A stretch of DNA of 64,000 nt, taken from contig OX597834.1 in the NCBI GenBank assembly GCA_951406725.2, forward strand, positions 17,422,001-17,486,000. Reading direction: 5' to 3'. Both the position numbers and the translations under genes were made by a program. This document shows positions 1,887-64,000 of this stretch, in pieces (within the stretch, counting starts at the first letter, position 1; each line of letters begins with the position of its first letter). The notes under the pieces are model-generated. The model did no database searches. It was not told the DNA's origin and saw only the letters and a program-made list of their open reading frames with translations. This stretch comes from Octopus vulgaris (taxonomy: Eukaryota).

Positions 1887-2083
1887 TAAAGATATACTCA
1901 TTAGAAATACATGTTGCGATAATGACTGCAAACCATTAACTGATAGTATATATACAAAAAGAGCCAGTTATAGAAGGCATCAATCCAACATAAGGAGAGA
2001 AGGTAGTGTGTATTTTTAAGTCTTAAAGTAAGAAAAGAAGAGATTAATATAATATCATAAGGTATGATATTATATTATTTACA

Positions 2084-2492
2084 GCAGGCTTCTTTCAGTT
2101 TCTGTCTACCAAATCCACTCACAAGGCTTTGGTTGCCCCAAGGCTATAGTAGAAGACTCTTGCCCAAGGTGCCATGCCATGAAGCTGAACATGGAACCAT
2201 ATGGTTGGGAAGCAAGCTCCTTGTTTCTTTACTACCCACAAGGGGCTAAACATAGAAGGGACAAACAAGGACAGACAAACGGATTAAGTCAATTACATCG
2301 ACCCCCAGTGCGTAACTGGTACTTAATTTATCGACCCCGAAAGGATGAAAGGCAAAGTCAACCTCGGCGGAATTTGAACTCAGAATGTAACGGCAGACGG
2401 AATACGGCTACGCATTTCGCCCGGCGTGCTAACGATTCTGCCAGCTCGCCGCTGGGAAGCAAGCTCCTTACCACACAGCTACACCTGAGCCT
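2084..2492 (-). mobile_element. SINE family A 5' half, interrupted by a family B SINE
   Basis: Matches the head of the family A consensus (19601-20020); split at 2223-2452. Confidence 0.85.
2223..2452 (-). mobile_element. Young full-length SINE family B with 17-bp TSD
   Basis: A-box-like TGGCAGAATCGTTAG and B box GAGTTCAAATTCC on - strand; TSD tgggaagcaagctcctt at 2206-2222 and 2453-2469. Confidence 0.92.
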
Positions 2493-2559
2493 ATTTTGAT
2501 TGAGAAATTTTGGGGTTCTTGCTCTGGCTAACCAACTGAGTCTAACGGCAAGGAAATGA

Positions 2560-2900
2560 AGGAATTTGTTGGCTCTGGTCTCCATTATGCACCCAATAAT
2601 GCAGCTGAATCGCATGGACCTGAATAGCTCCAGGTGTTCAGCTCTATTAATACAGCCAACAACTTTTCCTGGTTAATTTTTGCTCCTGATACCACTTCTC
2701 ATTTCCCCCGATATGGTGCTTATTATCTCAATGTATTTGCTTTTCAACACCACAACAGTGCATTGTTGGCTTATGCCAACACACATCTCCCACATCCTAG
2801 TTCACCCAGGATGCCCCTCGATGTTTTCTGATTGTGCTGAAGTGGCCCAAGAGCCAGCAGATACAACAGGGGCAAGAAGGGACCTTGGAAGACTGGGCAG
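2560..2900 (-). pseudogene. Decayed L1/Tx1-clade reverse transcriptase fragment
   Basis: Manual translation with stops and frameshifts: VFQG-PFLPLLYLLALGPL...RGILGELGCGRCVLA*ANN/VTVVV...VSGAKINQEK, fitting the QGCPLSPLLY..ALEPL, YADD and GAKIN..K motifs. Confidence 0.65.
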
Positions 2901-3476
2901 TTCAGTTATAAATTCAGGTGATACAATTGTTCTACTTTTAGATATAAAATTGGGTTTTTAGAGAATGATTCATACGGTACAGGCATATGCATTAACACAA
3001 CTGGACAACTAACTGTATAGATACAGAGATAGCTAAAGTCAACAGAGATATAAAGAGTGACAGGCGTAAAATCCTTTCTGATAAGACTCTTTTAGATTTT
3101 CACTTTCAATACCGGATATCTATAAAAAAATAAAAAATAAAGTAAGAAGGAATAAATAAATAGATACTCCCTAACAAAAGAATCTTAAACACTTTAGTTG
3201 ACCAAACAGCAGAACATTATGACAATGAGTACACACCCACAAACTCTGGAATTTTGAACACCTAGAAGAGAAAAAAATCACAAACAAAACATAAAATACA
3301 CTACACACATGCAATGTACCCTGATTATATAAAAAAACCAAACCACAGCATGTATCATACCCAGTCATAAATCAATAGAATATATTAGAGAATAAGTTAT
3401 GATATTATTATAGTTAATTTTTGTGTCCGTCTTTATGTTCAGAGTTCAAATCCTGCCAAGTTTGATTTTGCTTTAA

Positions 3477-3677
3477 GGCGGTGAGCTGGCAGAAACGTTA
3501 GCATGCGGGGCGAAATGCTTAGTGGTATTTCATCTGCCGTTACGTTCTAAGTTCAAATTCTGTCGAGGTCAACTTTGCCTTTCATCCTTTTGGGGTTGAT
3601 AAATTAAGTACCATTAATTTATTGACCCCGAAAGAATGAAGGGCAGAGTTGACTATGACAGAATTTGAACTCAGAAC
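3477..3677 (+). mobile_element. SINE B copy followed immediately by an inverted SINE B segment (fold-back)
   Basis: 3544-3607 and 3614-3677 are reverse complements at about 54/64 positions, with loop gtacca. Confidence 0.85.
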
Positions 3678-4022
3678 ATAATAATAATAATAATAATAAT
3701 AATAATATGTACATATATATATATATATATATTCTTATTCTGAACTGATTTAGCCTTCTCATGTTAATTGCTTGGGGACAAGCTATTACTACTACTACTA
3801 CTACTACAACCATTGCTGTTGCTATTGTTGTTGTTGTTATATATATATTACTGATCAAATATTACCTTAAGGAAAGTGTTTAACTATGAAAACATCTACA
3901 TCATTGAAAGGCTGTTCTCTGGTGTCTATTGATCTCGCACCAGTTGGGAGGGGGGAACCTTACAGACCATGTGTTAAATATTGTATGGCCTACTTCACTC
4001 ATCTCGGATATCTTCCACCTTG

Positions 4023-4058
<36 letters not shown>

Positions 4059-4477
4059 ACGTGAAGCTACTCATATTTCTGATGATATTAAAGTAAAGAG
4101 TCAAGACAATTTTTCTTTCCTTCTTTCTCTATTACATACACACCTTCATTGGGAAAAGCATCATGCTTAAAAGAGTGTGTGTGTGTGTGTGTGTGTTTGC
4201 ATGTTTATGTATGTGTAATTCATGCACATAGTTATACACACATACACACATATATATATACACAAACACACACACATATATAGATACATAGAAATACATA
4301 TACATACTAACATTTAAAAGTTCACATTCAAATGTTTTCAAATACATTCATATGTTGCCTCTGTTTCCTCTCTCTGTTTCAATCATCATCATCATCATCA
4401 TCATCATCATTTGACACCCCCACACACACCTATACACACACATGCACACACACACACACACATCAATAAATATTTAT

Positions 4478-4937
4478 TGGTTTTGAATTCTGGCACAAGG
4501 CCAGCAATTTTGGGGAAGGGGTAAGTCAATTACATTGACACCCACTACCACCACCACCACGCTCTAAATTGGTCCCTATTTTATCAACCCCGAAAGGATG
4601 AAAGACAGAGTCAATCTCAGCAGAATTTGACCTCGAGACATAAAGATGGACAAAATGCCACGAAGCATTTTGCCTGGTGGGTTAACAATTCTGCCAGCTT
4701 GTTGCCTTAGAGCATACATGTGTTGGTTTCAAAGTTTGGCACAAGCCCAACAAGTTTGACGGTAGGGTTAAGTTGAATACATCAATCCCAGGGTTCAACT
4801 GGTGCTTATCTTATCAACCCTGAAAGGATGAAAGGCAAAGTCAACCTTGGTGAAATTTGAATTCAGAATGTAAAGACGGACAAAATGCCACTCTAGCATT
4901 TTGCCCAGTGTGCTAACAGTACTGCCAGCTTGCTGCT
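4478..4937 (-). mobile_element. Two tandem older SINE B copies (tail variant ggccttgtgccaaaatttgaaacc)
   Basis: Repeated ggcacaaggccagcaatttt...cccgaaaggatgaaag...aatttgaa.tcagaa...ctgccagct. Confidence 0.8.
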
Positions 4938-5059
4938 TTGCTAATTATACAGGGTGTCCCCCCAAAATAATAATACAGGGTGTCCCCCAAAAATGATAAT
5001 ACAGTGTGTCCTCCAAAAATTGACATCGTTCCATAGGCTAATAACATAGTCAAATATGT

Positions 5060-5245
5060 AAGATCGTTAGCTCCTACACGCATTTTTTTCTCTCCTTGTT
5101 TTTTTCTGTGTATCTTTCTGTTGAAGAGCATAGGCTCAAAACGTAAAAGACTTTTTCTATTCCTGAGTACTATACTAATACATTTGTTTGTTTGTACTCC
5201 TCCTGCCTTCGTCTTTTGTTTATTTTCGTAAACTTCCCCTTTATA
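5060..5245 (+). mobile_element. Penelope-like non-autonomous element with degenerate hammerhead (5113-5150)
   Basis: tcttt-CTGTTGA-a-gagc atag gctc-AAAA-CG-TA-aaaga; colinear with 51598-51767. Confidence 0.65.
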
Positions 5246-5299
5246 TAAAAACTAACCCAGTTTGGATTGGGTATGCCATTGAATATGACAATCTGCTGT

Positions 5300-5531
5300 T
5301 GAAATGGCCACCACTTCACCTGACTTGAAACCTTGTGATTTTTTTTCTATGGGGCTTTGTGTGGGGAGTGGTCTATATCCTCTTCCTACAAGCCTAGAGG
5401 AACTGAAGCAGAGAATCACTGAGGTGCTGGAAGATGTTATGCAAGACAAGCCACAGTGTGTTTGGCAGGAGCTGGACTACCGATTTGATGTGTGTCTTGT
5501 CACAGGTTGTGCACATATTGAACATTTGTGA
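5300..5531 (+). pseudogene. Tc1/mariner transposase C-terminal fragment (frameshifted)
   Basis: W/PP.SPDLKPCDFF.WG...LPTSLEELKQRITEVLEDV.QD...VWQELDYRFDVC.VT..AHIEHL*, the typical SPDLxPxDFF motif and GxHIEHL-type end. Confidence 0.85.
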
Positions 5532-5711
5532 AGCTTTGAGAAATCACATATAAAATCTACATCTCCCCAAATCTCCTGTTTGAATTTTGATAAATAAAAT
5601 CTTTTATTGTCCAACATGAAGCCTGTTTAATTTCATTTGCCTTGCACATGTTTTTCAGATAACCACATTTCAAATGGTGTCAATTTTGAGGGGGACACCC
5701 TGCACATATAT

Positions 5712-6330
5712 ATTGGCTTTAGAACTTGGCACAAGGCCAGCAATTTTGGGGGTAAGTCGATTACGCCGACTCTGGTGCTCAACTGGTGTTTATTCTATCA
5801 ACCCGGAAGGGATGAAAGGCAAAGTCAGCAGTTACTAAATTTGAATTCAAAATCAAAATGTAAAAACAAACAAAACACCACTAAGCATTTTGCCCAGTGT
5901 GCCAATGTTTCTTATTTCTTTATTGCCCACAAGTGGCTAAACATAGAGGGGACAAACAAGGACAGACAAAGGGATTAAGTCGATTACATCGACCCCAGTG
6001 CATAACTGGTACTTAATTAATCAACCCCGAAAGGATGAAAGGCAAAGTTGACCTCGGCGGAATTTGAACTCAGAACTTAGCGGCAGACGAAATACTGCTA
6101 AGCATTTTGCCTGGCGTGCTAACGTTTCTATCAGCTCGCCACAATAAGCACAGTAAATATTGATTTCAAATTTTGGCACAAGGCCAGCAGTTGTTGGGGA
6201 GGGTCTGAGTTGATTACATTGACTCCAGTATTCAACTGGTAGTTATTTTATCAACCCTGAAAGGATGAAAGGCAAAGTTGACTTTGGTGTAATTTGAACT
6301 CAGAATGTAGAGATGGACAAAATGCTGCTA
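5712..6330 (-). mobile_element. Cluster of three SINE B copies (young full copy at 5911-6140)
   Basis: Three occurrences of the aaggatgaaaggcaaagt central segment in the same orientation. Confidence 0.85.
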
Positions 6331-6917
6331 ATATCTTAATATGTAAATTGTGTACCATACCAAGCCAATACTTTGGGTTTTTTGTTAATAGAGCAGGTTT
6401 GTCAACCTATGGCAAACCCATTTTTAAGCATAAAATCAGATCTTCAGCTGTCTGATGGATGTTAGCAGACCTGTTCTATTAACAAGAAATCCAGGGCATC
6501 AGGATGGTAGTTTGTGTGTGTGTGAGGAACATGCTAAGTTGAATGGTTAAGAAGTTTACTTTGAACCATGAGATTCTAAGTTCAATCTCAGATCGCAGAA
6601 AATTATCTCCTGTCTTAGGCTAAAGTAAGCTCAATCTTTAGAAAGTGAAATCGAATGGATAGAAGCAGCAAGAAGCCTACAAGATGAACGAAGTGCATTT
6701 GTAGTTGAAATAGTCAGTCTCATCATAAGTGGCATCATGCTTTTTCTTCTTGGAACTTAGAGAAGAGCTGTCTGTGGAATATTCAGTCACTTATATTTAT
6801 GGCCATGATACACTGAGGCAGTAGTTTAGTTTCTAGGGCAACATTGTCAAACACAACTTGAGAGGAGAACTACCATTGCATGCTAATTCTCAAATATTTG
6901 AGTGCAAAAATATTATT

Positions 6918-7095
6918 CTGATGATAATGATGGTATTGTTTTTAGTGGTGGTGGTGGTGGTGATGATAATGATGGGGATGATTATGATGGTAGAGGTTGT
7001 GGTGGTGTCAACAACAATGAAGGTGGCAGTGGTGGTAGTTGTGGTTGTGGGGAGCTGGGATGGGGTGATGGTGTTGATGATGATGATGAAAATCA
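6918..7095. repeat. Degenerate (GAT/GGT)n trinucleotide repeat
   Basis: Directly visible. Confidence 0.9.
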
Positions 7096-7434
7096 TATTC
7101 ATGATGCATAATAATTTCTTCCTCATTTTGACCTTAATTTATGCTCAGCTATGGTATTTTGATTTGCACCGATGGAATGCAATGTTTACACAATAGTCTG
7201 CATCCTGTATTTATATCATTAACATTAGGTTGGACAAGATAAACTGTAGTCTATTTAGACCAGGGGTGGGAAAAAACTTTTTAGTGTGGCGGACAAAAAT
7301 TTCCAATGAAAAAGGTTCGTGGGCAGACCACAAATTCTAACTCTTATATCTGTGTAAATCTTGTATATATCTATGTATAATTCTATGTGTGGAGGCCCAG
7401 TTAAACACTGGTGATGATGATGATATGTATACAT

Positions 7435-7537
<103 letters not shown>

Positions 7538-7586
7538 CATATATGTACACACATATATATATGCATATATATATATATTATATATA

Positions 7587-7631
<45 letters not shown>

Positions 7632-7699
7632 AAAAATGAAACCATATAATAGTGAAACTAAGAGATTGCTCTGGCATCACATTGGGCAAGAAGTTGAAA

Positions 7700-7883
7700 A
7701 TCTTTTTGGCCCATGACACTCCATGGACTCCAACTAAGGCATGTGTAAAATTTGAATGAACTCAGTTGGGTAGTTCTCGAGTTTTAGGGATGTACGCATT
7801 CAGACAGACAGATAGACAAACAGACAGACAGACACACATACACATACATACACACACACATTCTCAGTTTTATATATGTGTAG
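7700..7883 (+). mobile_element. Non-autonomous Helitron/Helentron-like 3' part
   Basis: aaatttgaatgaactcagttgggtagttctcgagtt + (GACA)n/(CATA)n + ttttatatatgtgtag follows the architecture of DINE-1/Lep1-type elements (pattern recognition only). Confidence 0.5.
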
Positions 7884-8099
7884 TTATATAATTTTAGAGA
7901 TGAACATTTAAAAATATTTACATCTCTTCTACAGTCAAACTCTTATCAAAATCAGATGTTTTGTTTCCTGATGTGCACAAAGTACTGGGCTGGATTTGAA
8001 CCAGGAGTCTTTATTTCTAAACCAAGTGTTTATTCCTAAATTAAAAGTTTATCCTTCAGGCCACTGACACAGGAATAGATCAAATGATAATAGGGTGAA

Positions 8100-8428
8100 G
8101 ACCCCCTTCAGTCATGAATGACCATGGGATCGAACCTAGAAAGTTACCTTCCGAGGCACAAGTCTGGGCAAGGTTGTTTGTGGAAGGCCAGCAGTTGCCC
8201 ATGCATACCAGCCTCCCTTCTCCGTGCCACCGATGTTATCCAAGGGAAAGGCAAAGGTCGATACAGATTGGCAAAAGTGATGTCACAAATCTTTTTACAG
8301 CTGAATTAACTGGAGAATGTGAAATAAAGTCTTGCTCAAGAACACAACACGCAGCCCGGTCCAGGAATTGAACTCATAACCTCATGATTGTAAGCTTGAC
8401 GCTCTAACCACTGAGCCACGCGCCTTCA
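8100..8428 (-). mobile_element. tRNA-headed SINE (family C head with a distinct body)
   Basis: - strand gaaggcgcgtggctcagtggttag (A box)...gagttcaattcc (B box)...gtgttcttgagcaagac. Confidence 0.8.
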
Positions 8429-8721
8429 CACAAAAAAACAGGGTAACCTGAGGTTAAACAACAACATTATACAGCAGAGATTATAAGAAGACGAAAATAG
8501 ACTAAATGGTGAATGACAGCCAGATAGAATTATAAAATGGTTAACTTAAATCAAATGATAATAATTGGAGATCAAACTGCTTGAAACATAGTTGATAGAT
8601 GTAAACATTTCACTGGCTGTTTTGTCTCTAAAGTTATGTTTAATGGTCCAAAAAATTATAATCTTATTAGCAGCAACTGTTGATAATTGCGGATCAATCC
8701 AATCAAAGCACACTGGGTTTA

Positions 8722-9050
8722 CTTAGGTATAAGCTGCATTATTTTACACTTGATTTTTAACTGTAAAATTGGGGTGTGACTTATACATGAGGTAAAGCTA
8801 AAATTATGAAGGATAAAAATTTTGGATCAAGATTTAACACTAAATTAGAAGCGTGAGTTATACATGAGGCTAAACTAAAGTTATGAAGGGAGAAAATTTG
8901 GTAGAAATTAGGGGTGGAACTTATACATGGGGTGAAGCTAAAACTATGAAGGGAAAAATTTTGTCTCTAGATTTGGCACTAAATAAGAGGTGCAAATTAT
9001 ACACAGAACTATGAAGGAAAAAAATTTTGTATGAAGATTTAACATTAAAT
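8722..9050. repeat. Tandemly repeated subterminal segment of a pogo/Tigger-like MITE
   Basis: Four units of ttatacatgagg..aagctaaaa.tatgaagg..aaaatttt; reverse-complement homolog at 21317-21510 begins ccataatttgctcgagtataagccgcac. Confidence 0.6.
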
Positions 9051-16185: not shown

Positions 16186-16304
16186 TGAGCCTTCTTTCTC
16201 TGGACTTTCCTGTTTCCGATGAAGAGCTATGCTCAAAACATTGGCAACACCTCTCTCCCTTCACCGAGCATCAAATTAATATATTTCTTGTGCACGTCCT
16301 CACT

Positions 16305-16306
<2 letters not shown>
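16186..16306 (+). mobile_element. Penelope-like element with degenerate hammerhead (16212-16245)
   Basis: gttt-CCGATGA-a-gagc tat gctc-AAAA-CA-TT; colinear with 57459-57640; flanked by (TG)/(TA)n. Confidence 0.65.
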
Positions 16307-20041: not shown

Positions 20042-20257
20042 ATAGTAAATTCCCAAAAATGAAGAACAAACACAAAAAACGACAATGCGAGGACGTGGTA
20101 CATGTAAAGTATTTAGCAGATGCTCGAGGAGGGAAAGAAAGGTGGTTTTATGTTTTGAGCAAAGCTCTTCTTCGGAAACAGAGGAGACAGAGTAAAGTCC
20201 AATAGAAAAAGAAGACAGAGGTAAAAAAAATCACCAACGATTCACATGTGGTTACAA
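20042..20257 (-). mobile_element. Penelope-like element with degenerate hammerhead (20145-20179)
   Basis: - strand gttt-CCGAAGA-a-gagc ttt gctc-AAAA-CA-TA-aaac; colinear with 57459-57640 end to end. Confidence 0.7.
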
Positions 20258-30469: not shown

Positions 30470-30705
30470 CCATTTACGTCTTCGTTTTGGAACGCATACT
30501 TGCATATATTTCCTTGCCCCTCCCCATGGAGTTGCATTTCCACCCAGCCCCTAAACATTTTCGTCTTCTACTTTCCCTTCTGCCTGATGAATGACTAGCG
30601 TCCGAAACGTTAAAACCTTTCCTGTCAAGCGTTATACTAATAACACCTTTGTTGAAACTTGCCCCTCTCATTGTATTTTTCTTGTTTTTGCTCATTCGTC
30701 ATATT
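30470..30705 (+). mobile_element. Penelope-like element variant with hammerhead core (30584-30612)
   Basis: CTGATGA-a-tgac tagc gtcc-GAAA-CG-TT, then agcgttatactaata as in the 5060 and 51598 copies; stem I not retained. Confidence 0.6.
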
Positions 30706-41065: not shown

Positions 41066-42000
41066 TTAAATGATGTGCTTGAGGGGTGGTGGTTATTTTT
41101 AGAAATTACAAAAAAAAAAAGCAAGTTACATAGGTGCAAGTTTGCATGGCTTTGTGGTTAAGAAGTTCACTTTGCAACCATGTGGTTACAGGTTCACTCA
41201 CTGGTAATGTTTCTTTTGAATAGTTGCTAGTCAGTAACTACAAGGTTACTAAGGGCAGGTAGAAAATTCCAGAGGGATGATGTTCTAGGTGTGGCTGAAG
41301 GATTGGTGACAGACACAATGTGGGTGACAAACAGAGGAGCAATGAATGACTGAGGGATACTTGAGTGATGGCTGTTGTTGTTGTTGTTTAACTGTAGGTC
41401 AGTTATGGTTTAGAAACCCCCGTTCCATCCATGGCCATTCCCTTATAGTTTTCAAGCATTGTATTCACTAGATGGCATGATTCAGTGTTTTTCAATGTGT
41501 CCAGATGTGGTTGTGTGGTTAAGAAGTTTGCAAATATTCTGCTCAATACCACGAATTTGCTCTGCCTTAACCACTTGAGCATGTCCCTTAGTGGTTGACA
41601 GTATGTGCATCTCTGCCGGGAGTCCAGTTGAAATCTAATAGGTTTAATTTCTTAGAAATTAACCCATCTACAAATGACACCAGCTAACAAACGCTTACCC
41701 TGGGTTTGGTTTTTAATCGCCGCTGTGGTTATCCCAAGTGTTGGATGAATATCCTGTCGTGGAGACATCGAGGCAACCCTGTATTTGTTTAATAGACGAT
41801 TGCTTGAAACTCTGAACAAATAACACTGTTGTAGTATAATACGGAATGGTGTGTGTGACTTTTACCTGAGAATGTACCTTAAGAATGTAAAAATATAAAA
41901 CAAAGTTATGTAATCCTATAGGCCAATTTACAACCAATCAGTCGGAACCGATTGTGGTCGTAAGTAGACGATGACCTGTATATACATATATATATATATA

Positions 42001-46484: not shown

Positions 46485-46968
46485 CTCCTGTGCAGGTGGC
46501 AAGTAAAGAAACACCGTTTTGACCCTGTGCTTGAGGAGATCCATTGAGTCAAGTATACCAACATAAAAAATCAATGGAAACTGCAGTTGTGAGCCCTGTG
46601 CCGGTGGCACGTAAAAAGCACCATCCGACCGTGGCCGATGCCAGCGCCGCCTAGACTGGCTTCCATGCCGGTGGCACGTAAAAAGCACCAATCGTGGCCG
46701 TTGCCAGCCTCGCCTGGCACCTGTGCCAGTGGCACGTAAAAAGCACCAATCGTGGCCGTTGCCAGCCTCGCCTGGCACCTGTGCCAGTGACACGTAAAAA
46801 GCACCCACTATACTCACGGAGTGGTTGGCGTTAGGAAGGGCATCCAGCTGTAGCAACACTGCCAGATCAGACTGGAGCCTGGTGCAGCCTTCTGGCTTCC
46901 CAGATCCCCGGTCGAACTGTCCAACCCATGCTAGCATGGAGAACGGACGTTAAACGATGATGATGATG
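46485..46968 (+). mobile_element. RTE 3' UTR (family D) with four tandem ~58-67 bp structured repeats
   Basis: tgcc.gtg.cacgtaaaaagcacc four times from 46594; (GAT)n tail. Confidence 0.9.
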
Positions 46969-51597: not shown

Positions 51598-51767
51598 GGA
51601 TCGCTAGCCACTACATGTTCTTTATTTTCTCTCCTTGTTTCTTTCTGTGGAAGAGCGTAGGCTTGAAACGTTAAAGACTTTTTCACCTCCTGAGCCTTAT
51701 ACTAATATATCTATTTGTTGTCTACACCACCTGTCTTCGTCTTTTGTTTTTTGTGAATTCTCCCTAT
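51598..51767 (+). mobile_element. Penelope-like element with variant hammerhead (51640-51677)
   Basis: tcttt-CTGTGGA-a-gagc gtag gctt-GAAA-CG-TT-aaaga; colinear with 5060-5245. Confidence 0.65.
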
Positions 51768-57366: not shown

Positions 57367-57409
<43 letters not shown>

Positions 57410-57458
57410 ACACACACACACATATATAAATTATATACACACACACATACACACATAT

Positions 57459-57640
57459 ATGTGACCATGTGTGTACCCCCTTCTCTGGATCTTTCCTTTT
57501 CCTATGTTTCTGACGAAGAGCTCTGCTCGAAACGTAAAACTCTCCTTCCCTTCCTTCCTGAGCATCCAATAATACTATATTTGTTCCACATCCTCATGTT
57601 GTTGTGTTTTCTCTTTGTGTTTTCATGTTTGGATTAACTA
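57459..57640 (+). mobile_element. Penelope-like non-autonomous element in a (TA)n tract
   Basis: Contains an intact hammerhead; homologous to the 16186 and 20042 copies. Confidence 0.75.
57506..57540 (+). ncRNA. Minimal type I hammerhead ribozyme, intact core
   Basis: GUUU-CUGACGA-A-GAGC UCU GCUC-GAAA-CG-UA-AAAC: 4-bp stem I, 4-bp stem II, palindromic ACGU stem III; predicted cleavage after A57536. Confidence 0.8.
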
Positions 57641-57954
57641 TATATATACATATATATATACATTAGATGTATAACTGATTTATTGCACATAGATTTTAAT
57701 CATGAAATCTTGTATAGACCCTTGTTGGGAATCACTATAGCTGAGTCTGGTTTGATAAAAATTTGGCTGTTATTTCTCTTAGGTGGAGCAACCAGTTGGT
57801 AAGGGAGGGTCCCTCATTAGGTCTACTGTCAAGTATTTTGTGAACATTTTATGTGTCTGTTATTATGGAGACAAACTACCCTTATCTCAACCACTGCCAC
57901 TAGATGTAACTGTGCCATGATTTTCTTAGAAAACAGACATTGGGTAAAGAGGAG

Positions 57955-63538: not shown

Positions 63539-64000
63539 GGCGGCGAGCTGGCAGAAACGTAAGCATGCTTAGCGGTATTTTGTTTGCCGTTACGTTCTGA
63601 GTTCAAATTCCGCCAAGGTCGACTTTGCCTTTCATCCTTTCAGGGTCGACAAATTAAGTACCAGTTACGCACTGGGGTCGAGGTAATTGACTTAATCCGT
63701 TTGTCTGTCCTTGTCTGTCCTCTCTGTGCTTAGCCCCTTATGGGTAGTAAAGAAATAGGTATTTCATCTGTCTTTACGTTCCGAGTTCAAATTCCACCGA
63801 GGTTGACTTTGCCTTTCATCCTTTCGGGGTCGATAAATTAAGTACCAGTTATGCACTGCGGTCGATGTAATTGACTTAATCCATTTGTCTGTCCTTGTCT
63901 GTCCTCTCTGTGTTTAGCCCCTTGTGGGTAGTAAAGAAATAAGTATTTCATCTGCCGCTATGTTCTGAGTTCAAATTTTGCTGAGGTCAACTTTGCCATT
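63539..64000 (+). mobile_element. Tandem multimer of SINE B (period ~184 bp, runs off the window)
   Basis: Unit 1 starts at the A box; units 2 (63759) and 3 (63943) start at gtatttcatctg directly after the gaaata tail. Confidence 0.9.

Follow-up and report, generated by a model that had tools for sequence, protein, structure and literature searches.

Dispersed copies of a minimal hammerhead motif in an octopus genome, probably derived from Penelope-like elements

The repeat at 57459-57640 of a 64,000-nucleotide stretch of Octopus vulgaris DNA, here called the window, spells out the core of a hammerhead ribozyme, which raises the question of what kind of element carries such a core and how it came to be there. 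The sequence-only reading had ascribed a complete core to 57506-57540, and this is borne out by a match at 57510-57536 to a strict descriptor, written to accept CUGANGA or its U3-A8 form, stems II and I of at least 3 bp each and palindromic positions 15.2/16.2. It is the one match in the window, and 0 of 200 block-wise dinucleotide shuffles match. All parts lie on the plus strand. The 5' strand of stem I, GUUU (57506-57509), forms 4 bp with its 3' strand, AAAC (57537-57540). The core residues C3-A9, CUGACGA, and an unpaired A between A9 and G10.1 occupy 57510-57517, followed by stem II (57518-57528; predicted pair probability about 0.8), GAGC/GCUC with a 3-nt loop and a G10.1-C11.1 closing pair. 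The descriptor then places G12-A13-A14, the palindromic ACGU of a loopless stem III and H17, which is A57536, at 57529-57536. From the hammerhead consensus, a cut would be predicted 3' of 57536.

Rfam did not recognise the motif: the three matches at 57460-57640 include no hammerhead, and neither do the 150 of 330 matches listed for the whole window, which are mostly microsatellites matching miRNA models. A relaxed descriptor, partly circular because it was written from the copies themselves, gave seven matches in the window versus 1.27 +/- 1.24 in 60 shuffles (maximum 5); its seventh match, at 41866, is not homologous to the six copies described below. The fold model, which has no tertiary or magnesium terms, prefers an extended hairpin at 57510 in which the 5' strand of stem I and C3 pair with G12-A14, and it assigns stem I a probability of 0.02. 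For two strands, the designed double hammerhead comes to -9.1 kcal/mol, compared with a cofold minimum of -30.7 kcal/mol. The nearest motif on the same strand lies 5.9 kb off and is a U6 variant. Given the predicted misfold and the lack of a matched partner nearby, the solo 57510 copy is most likely inert.

The window was said to hold six segments of about 120-240 bp with one layout, and all six are present at the places given for them as homologous copies, with C3 at 5118, 16216, 30584, 51645 and 57510 on the plus strand and at 20175 on the minus strand. An nhmmer search with the 57459 copy recovered four of the five others (E 2e-14 to 6e-4), and the 30470 copy is joined to the set solely through the 51598 copy (nhmmer E 0.0035). 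When a profile made from all six was run against the window, no seventh copy appeared, the next match having an E of 0.6. Pairwise identities of 47-78% divide the copies into three subfamilies, A, B and C. Subfamily A (65-69% identical) comprises the 57459 copy (57460-57638, plus strand), which by strict descriptor and homology is the sole one with an intact minimal hammerhead; the longest copy, on the minus strand at 20045-20256, with C4, G12A and ACAU in its core (20175-20149) and ATAT-type runs on both sides; and a short plus-strand copy at 16186-16306, with C4, G12A and ACAU in its core (16216-16242) and a stem I of 2 bp. The two copies of subfamily B, both on the plus strand and 78% identical, share U6 and a 5-bp stem I; the one at 5060-5241 (core 5118-5145) also has G12A, and the one at 51598-51764 (core 51645-51672) a G10.1-U11.1 wobble. 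Subfamily C is the 30470 copy alone (30520-30701, plus strand, 5' boundary approximate), which has the box CUGAUGA in a core at 30584-30611, has lost G10.1 and is without stem I.

Common to all six copies is a minimal type I layout: a core with a single additional A, a stem II of 4 bp, ACGU without a loop, and a short stem I. The unpaired nucleotide between A9 and G10.1 is there in 6/6; G10.1-C11.1 is G-C in four, G-U in one and broken in one; the palindromic 15.2-16.2 reads ACGU in four and ACAU in two; and stem I measures 4, 4, 5, 5, 2 and 0 bp, i.e., 4-5 bp in four of the six. The sequence-only reading is supported in taking this layout for a minimal type I hammerhead whose palindromic stem III, having no loop, would close only with a second copy. 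Five of the six copies are nonetheless damaged in core or stems. The core letters C3UGANGA9/G12AA14/U16.1-H17 are complete at 57510 and at 30584, the latter with broken stems, and altered in the other four. G12 has become A in three copies, C11.1 U in one and ACGU ACAU in two, all six changes being CpG transitions. In the two subfamily B copies, hammerhead position 6 is U (5118-5124 and 51645-51651) and a 5-bp stem I and a 4-bp stem II are kept; two subfamily A copies have C at position 4. In the subfamily C copy the first box is complete and stem II includes two compensatory pairs, and a stem I pair is C-G in subfamily B versus G-C in subfamily A. When the six copies are aligned, 83% of 54 cells pair, compared with 20-50% when the partners are slid; in three of nine pairs both partners have changed, and a covariation score as high turns up in 6 of 500 shuffles. 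Covariation among these six related sequences, in which each compensatory change amounts to one event between subfamilies, lends the hammerhead fold modest support.

The wider family was sampled by aligning contigs of four public runs to 57456-57950 at 80% likeness. Matching contigs number 8,001 in DNA run X2 (organism A) and 5,085 in DNA run X6 (organism C), in keeping with the high copy number that had been suggested. Summed contig depth, which is not copy number and gives an order of magnitude only, is about 3 million on the element versus 48.5 on the unique flank in X2. These figures indicate very many copies in the family. The right flank at 57660-57795 is itself repeated, with summed depth in the thousands, and unique sequence begins near 57800. 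Among similar contigs, the majority reading keeps the core intact: C3, G5, A6, G8, A9, G12-A14, the stem II pairs and ACGU show no listed variant that reaches 8%, and U4 to C (5, 11, 13 and 25% of depth in the four runs) is the sole listed variant in 57510-57517. This conservation is biased upward because only contigs at least 80% alike to the 57459 copy were sampled. H17 itself (A57536) reads U in 25%, 70%, 74% and 94% of depth in the four runs, so the GUA cleavage triplet proposed earlier stands for the 57510 copy but not as a reading of the family. C57540 in the 3' strand of stem I also varies, at 6-15% in three runs and at 83% of a low depth in X12, and the loop II base at 57524 is mostly C in the run contigs. 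A dip in depth at 57524-57557 was considered as a cleavage signal and rejected, as it occurs in the DNA runs too and tracks the 57459 copy's own differences.

Before 57478, 125 contigs of one DNA run and 109 of the other have loose ends that match the 20042 copy; the family continues there with 20042-like sequence, and the 57459 copy is therefore shortened 5' of 57478. Runs X9 and X12, guessed to be RNA, hold 2,082 and 107 family contigs and leave the unique flank uncovered, for which reason they are not evidence for transcription of the locus. One X12 contig (record 1) of 3,778 letters has a family copy near one end and about 3.7 kb upstream in element orientation, and may represent either the complete parent element or a transcript of the host.

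Where the copies sit and where they end bear on how they were inserted. To say that they lie in (TA)n tracts was an overstatement. TATA does stand right after five of the six, with copy ends partly set in the same analysis and a background of 2.2% of positions starting TATA, but a long (TA)39 follows the 16186 copy only, and the 30470 copy ends in a degenerate TA/TG run. For the 57459 copy, the TA-rich run at its 3' end (57639-57663, no strand assigned) is the likely target site. A (CA)n/(TA) tract at 57370-57459 lies on its 5' side, and that left flanks are also TA-rich fits a target site. A low-complexity 9-nt repeat flanks the 20042 copy; target-site duplications are not resolvable in TA/CA runs. 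Subfamily A copies end 64 nt (16186), 102 nt and 104 nt after H17. A 37-nt 3' segment (57602-57638, plus strand), present in the 57459 and 20042 copies and missing from 16186, is a candidate for the optional "tail" of a Penelope-like element (PLE), although with 16186 as the single tail-less copy a simple deletion also fits. At their other ends, the two subfamily B copies begin at the same place, and two subfamily A copies share a 5' start when aligned by eye (11/14), MAFFT putting the gap elsewhere. Apart from the 30470 copy, whose boundary is approximate, no window copy reaches further than about 82 nt upstream of C3. None of the six has a tandem or inverted partner beside it in the window. 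A MITE was rejected for want of convincing terminal inverted repeats.

Is a PLE the source? Lunse et al., as cited in a review (PMC6765202), reportedly describe minimal hammerheads (min-HHRs) in PLE pLTRs. A Penelope ORF next to full-length members was to be looked for, and none was found in the window by profile, tblastn or Pfam. A profile of 38 PLE proteins, which recovers metagenome controls, gave a best E of 3.9 for a coding remnant; 179 proteins run by tblastn against the window gave nothing below E 0.02; and Pfam recognised no RT or GIY-YIG among 142 window frames, its two sub-cut-off matches being of neither type. No protein-coding gene at all was recognised among these 142 frames of at least 62 aa.

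The link to PLEs is one of analogy and comes from a scan of metagenome contigs. The pattern comprised stem II and GAAACGU with the first core box omitted, and 31 of 64 parts were covered, yielding 120 loci. Although the pattern left it out, a CYGAN box was found upstream in 71 of the 120. The 94 AT-rich loci with a 4-nt loop have a different 3-bp helix as stem I and read CCGA in 35 cases and CUGA in 35; with CCGA as frequent as CUGA, C4 is thus a common natural variant. Pieces of a PLE ORF occur in 13 of 97 AT-rich loci, and in 11 of the 97 (about 8 distinct sites) the C-terminus of that ORF ends 91-109 nt upstream on the same strand. Relatives of the ORF carry RT motifs, a CX4CxxC linker and GIY-YIG, arranged as in Neptune/Nematis-type PLEs, with Pfam matches near or below cut-off. 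The 5' ends of this metagenome family, an animal repeat unrelated to that of the window, are heterogeneous, and its 3' ends fall 60-89 nt (30/71) and 110-139 nt (26/71) after H17. One locus, L008 (4505-5022; also L017 and L069), has a PLE endonuclease remnant next to an inverted truncated piece, with the same core about 108 nt on, an arrangement that is typical PLE insertion anatomy. Among the best 20 metagenome loci, none shares homology with the window family clearly beyond the core; as the likeness is mainly over the core, the metagenome family shows analogy and not parentage. If its spacing is a guide, the window copies, with about 82 nt or less upstream as opposed to 91-109 nt, stop short of the place where an ORF would be reached. 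Pattern scans of viral contigs and of genome contigs gave 0 matches.

We consider it probable, at roughly 0.78, that the copies are dispersed insertions of the pLTR-derived 3' end of a Penelope-like element at TA-rich sites, and the Penelope-derived origin proposed from the letters of the window is supported as the likeliest source. Truncated insertions of an autonomous element and a fixed-length non-autonomous derivative both fall within this explanation. Several observations count against it: there is no PLE coding remnant in the window and no tandem or inverted partner, the candidate tail varies in one copy, and both B copies have U6. The two B copies also begin at one and the same place, which would not be expected if 5' ends were truncated at random. 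Tandem and inverted partner copies are typical of PLEs. Still, six solo copies do not decide the question, since most PLE motifs are solo in PMC4209133. The parentage, insertion route and cleavage that we infer would run as follows. A PLE GIY-YIG endonuclease would nick AT-rich DNA, and the PLE reverse transcriptase would begin on the RNA at either of two sites 3' of the hammerhead, leaving copies with or without the 37-nt segment; copying would end before the ORF, or the template would be a derivative devoid of one. A tandem parent transcript would bring two motifs together through ACGU, each forming stem I with a strand of the other, and cutting would follow H17, probably aided by protein.

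This kind of motif has been known since 2014, and the window family is a further case. According to Cervera and de la Pena 2014 (PMC4209133), min-HHRs occur in the pLTRs of metazoan PLEs by the thousands per genome and mostly solo; a single min-HHR showed no activity and dimers low activity. The window family resembles these min-HHRs in its type I form, the extra nucleotide between 9 and 10.1, G10.1-C11.1, the palindromic 15.2-16.2 without loop 3 and a helix I of 4-5 bp, as well as in having several sequence families per genome and mostly solo copies. It differs in a helix II of 4 bp (7-8 bp in the Schistosoma families there), in the C4 and U6 variants of two copies each and in that no linked ORF was found. 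At 6 copies per 64 kb, a figure that takes in decayed ones, the window family seems denser than the min-HHRs of the same source, where a genome holds 2,000-9,000 intact motifs. An optional tail of 30-40 bp and a (TA)n bias are PLE features in Craig et al. 2021 (PMC8557442), where MRC1 exemplifies non-autonomous PLEs. TA-rich sites and the candidate 37-nt tail liken the window family to Neptune/Nematis-type EN+ PLEs of that paper, whose CX2-5CxxC linker is found in the ORF ahead of the metagenome look-alike, whereas the window family is known from non-coding copies alone; Naiads share the TA bias and lack canonical hammerheads. For mechanism, the model is Poseidon PAc of Anolis, from Frangieh et al. 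2024 (PMC11167929): nicking is AT-rich, two RT start sites define the tail, the hammerhead cleaves only with protein, and ribozyme mutants insert normally in vitro. PAc belongs, however, to another clade and host, and these properties were measured in PAc alone. By PMC8557442 and PMC11167929, the in vivo role of PLE hammerheads is still open.

From cephalopods, 235 Rfam hammerhead loci are given for the giant squid in PMC6962438, and 31 recently active Penelope-like families for Octopus vulgaris in PMC13282606, a paper whose main text contains neither "ribozyme" nor "hammerhead", as is also true of the main text of PMC8967140. Among papers on hammerheads or Penelope in octopus and other cephalopods we found none on the window family, which may well be catalogued already. 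The use for repeat annotation is that a short repeat of high abundance can be placed in the PLE pLTR class.

Other origins must be weighed against a PLE 3' end. The sequence-only reading had offered a non-LTR retrozyme as an alternative, in which a tandem unit of about 200 nt would be transcribed, cut, circularised and reinserted by PLE enzymes, the window holding dispersed monomers. The likeness is real: both are short, non-coding and low in GC, with a type I hammerhead and probable dependence on PLEs (PMC7229834; bioRxiv 10.64898/2026.07.22.740005), the copies are close in length to the 150-450 bp range of PMC7229834, and monomers are evenly spread along Xenopus chromosomes in the bioRxiv report. 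One X2 contig even holds the core twice, returning from 57541 to 57505, possibly as a rare tandem or local duplication. That joint, however, occurs in 1 of 8,001 contigs, and 0/6 copies in the window are tandem; tandem arrays may exist elsewhere, as most contigs are shorter than one unit's span. As described in the same sources, retrozymes are tandem, mostly with canonical hammerheads and self-paired circular RNAs, whereas the window copies are solo and minimal, with a helix I of 5 bp or less in place of the canonical 6 bp with its loop 1-loop 2 contact, and no loop 3, and the unit RNA is not self-paired (the whole-copy fold of 57459-57640 has z = -0.38). We regard a retrozyme as unlikely.

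That the two B copies begin alike, as by eye do two A copies, would also suit an element of the SINE type, akin to the Schistosoma hammerhead SINEs, which has a promoter of its own and has acquired a PLE 3' end. The stretch of stem II and GAAA resembles a Pol III B box. Yet these letters are accounted for by the hammerhead core and are found again in the PLE-linked metagenome family; inspection by eye revealed no A box, ARAGORN found no tRNA in the window and Rfam no tRNA match at the 57459 copy, although a decayed head could escape both. The SINE origin seems to us unlikely as well, marginally less probable than the retrozyme. Domestication of the 57510 copy as a host ribozyme kept by selection is very improbable. 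This copy is indeed the sole one of the six with a complete core and intact stems, but most similar copies are intact too, and selection is therefore not required to account for it; moreover, it is predicted to misfold (the low stem I probability above), and the window has no recognised gene. That an ordinary repeat should resemble a hammerhead by chance, as the short stems and the missing Rfam match might suggest, is largely refuted and the least probable reading of all: none of the 200 shuffles passes the strict descriptor, the copies carry compensatory changes, and an unrelated PLE pLTR has the same core and stem II together with a stem I that differs but is compensated.

Returning to the Penelope-derived reading, a more specific version is conceivable, if rather doubtful, in which the copies are ORF-less PLE derivatives of fixed length (about 190-215 bp), SINE-like in behaviour, that target TA runs in tens of thousands of copies, subfamily B having spread after A6 changed to U with stems I and II kept and compensated. 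If true, the hammerhead fold would have been kept as a recognition signal for PLE protein and not for catalysis, and subfamilies A and B together would offer a natural test of whether cutting is required of PLE hammerheads at all. A genome with many copies and a possible U6 subfamily would allow one to ask statistically whether selection acts on catalysis or on the fold; with two U6 copies seen, the spread of U6 is a lead only.

Several families of short interspersed repeats predominate in the window, together with microsatellites. Tandem arrays at 63585-63997 (184 bp, 2.2 copies) and 46666-46805 (58 bp, 2.4 copies) are built from other dispersed repeats, and no hammerhead core lies within either. 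The 5060 copy interrupts a possible Tc1/mariner remnant at 4942-5500, with three 26-bp units at 4942-5020. The letters 3' of this copy resemble a transposase motif; downstream, at 5289-5528, there was no Pfam match. A long hairpin at 3478-3681, made of an abundant short repeat and its inverted second copy, gives a sub-threshold Rfam match to MIR5380.
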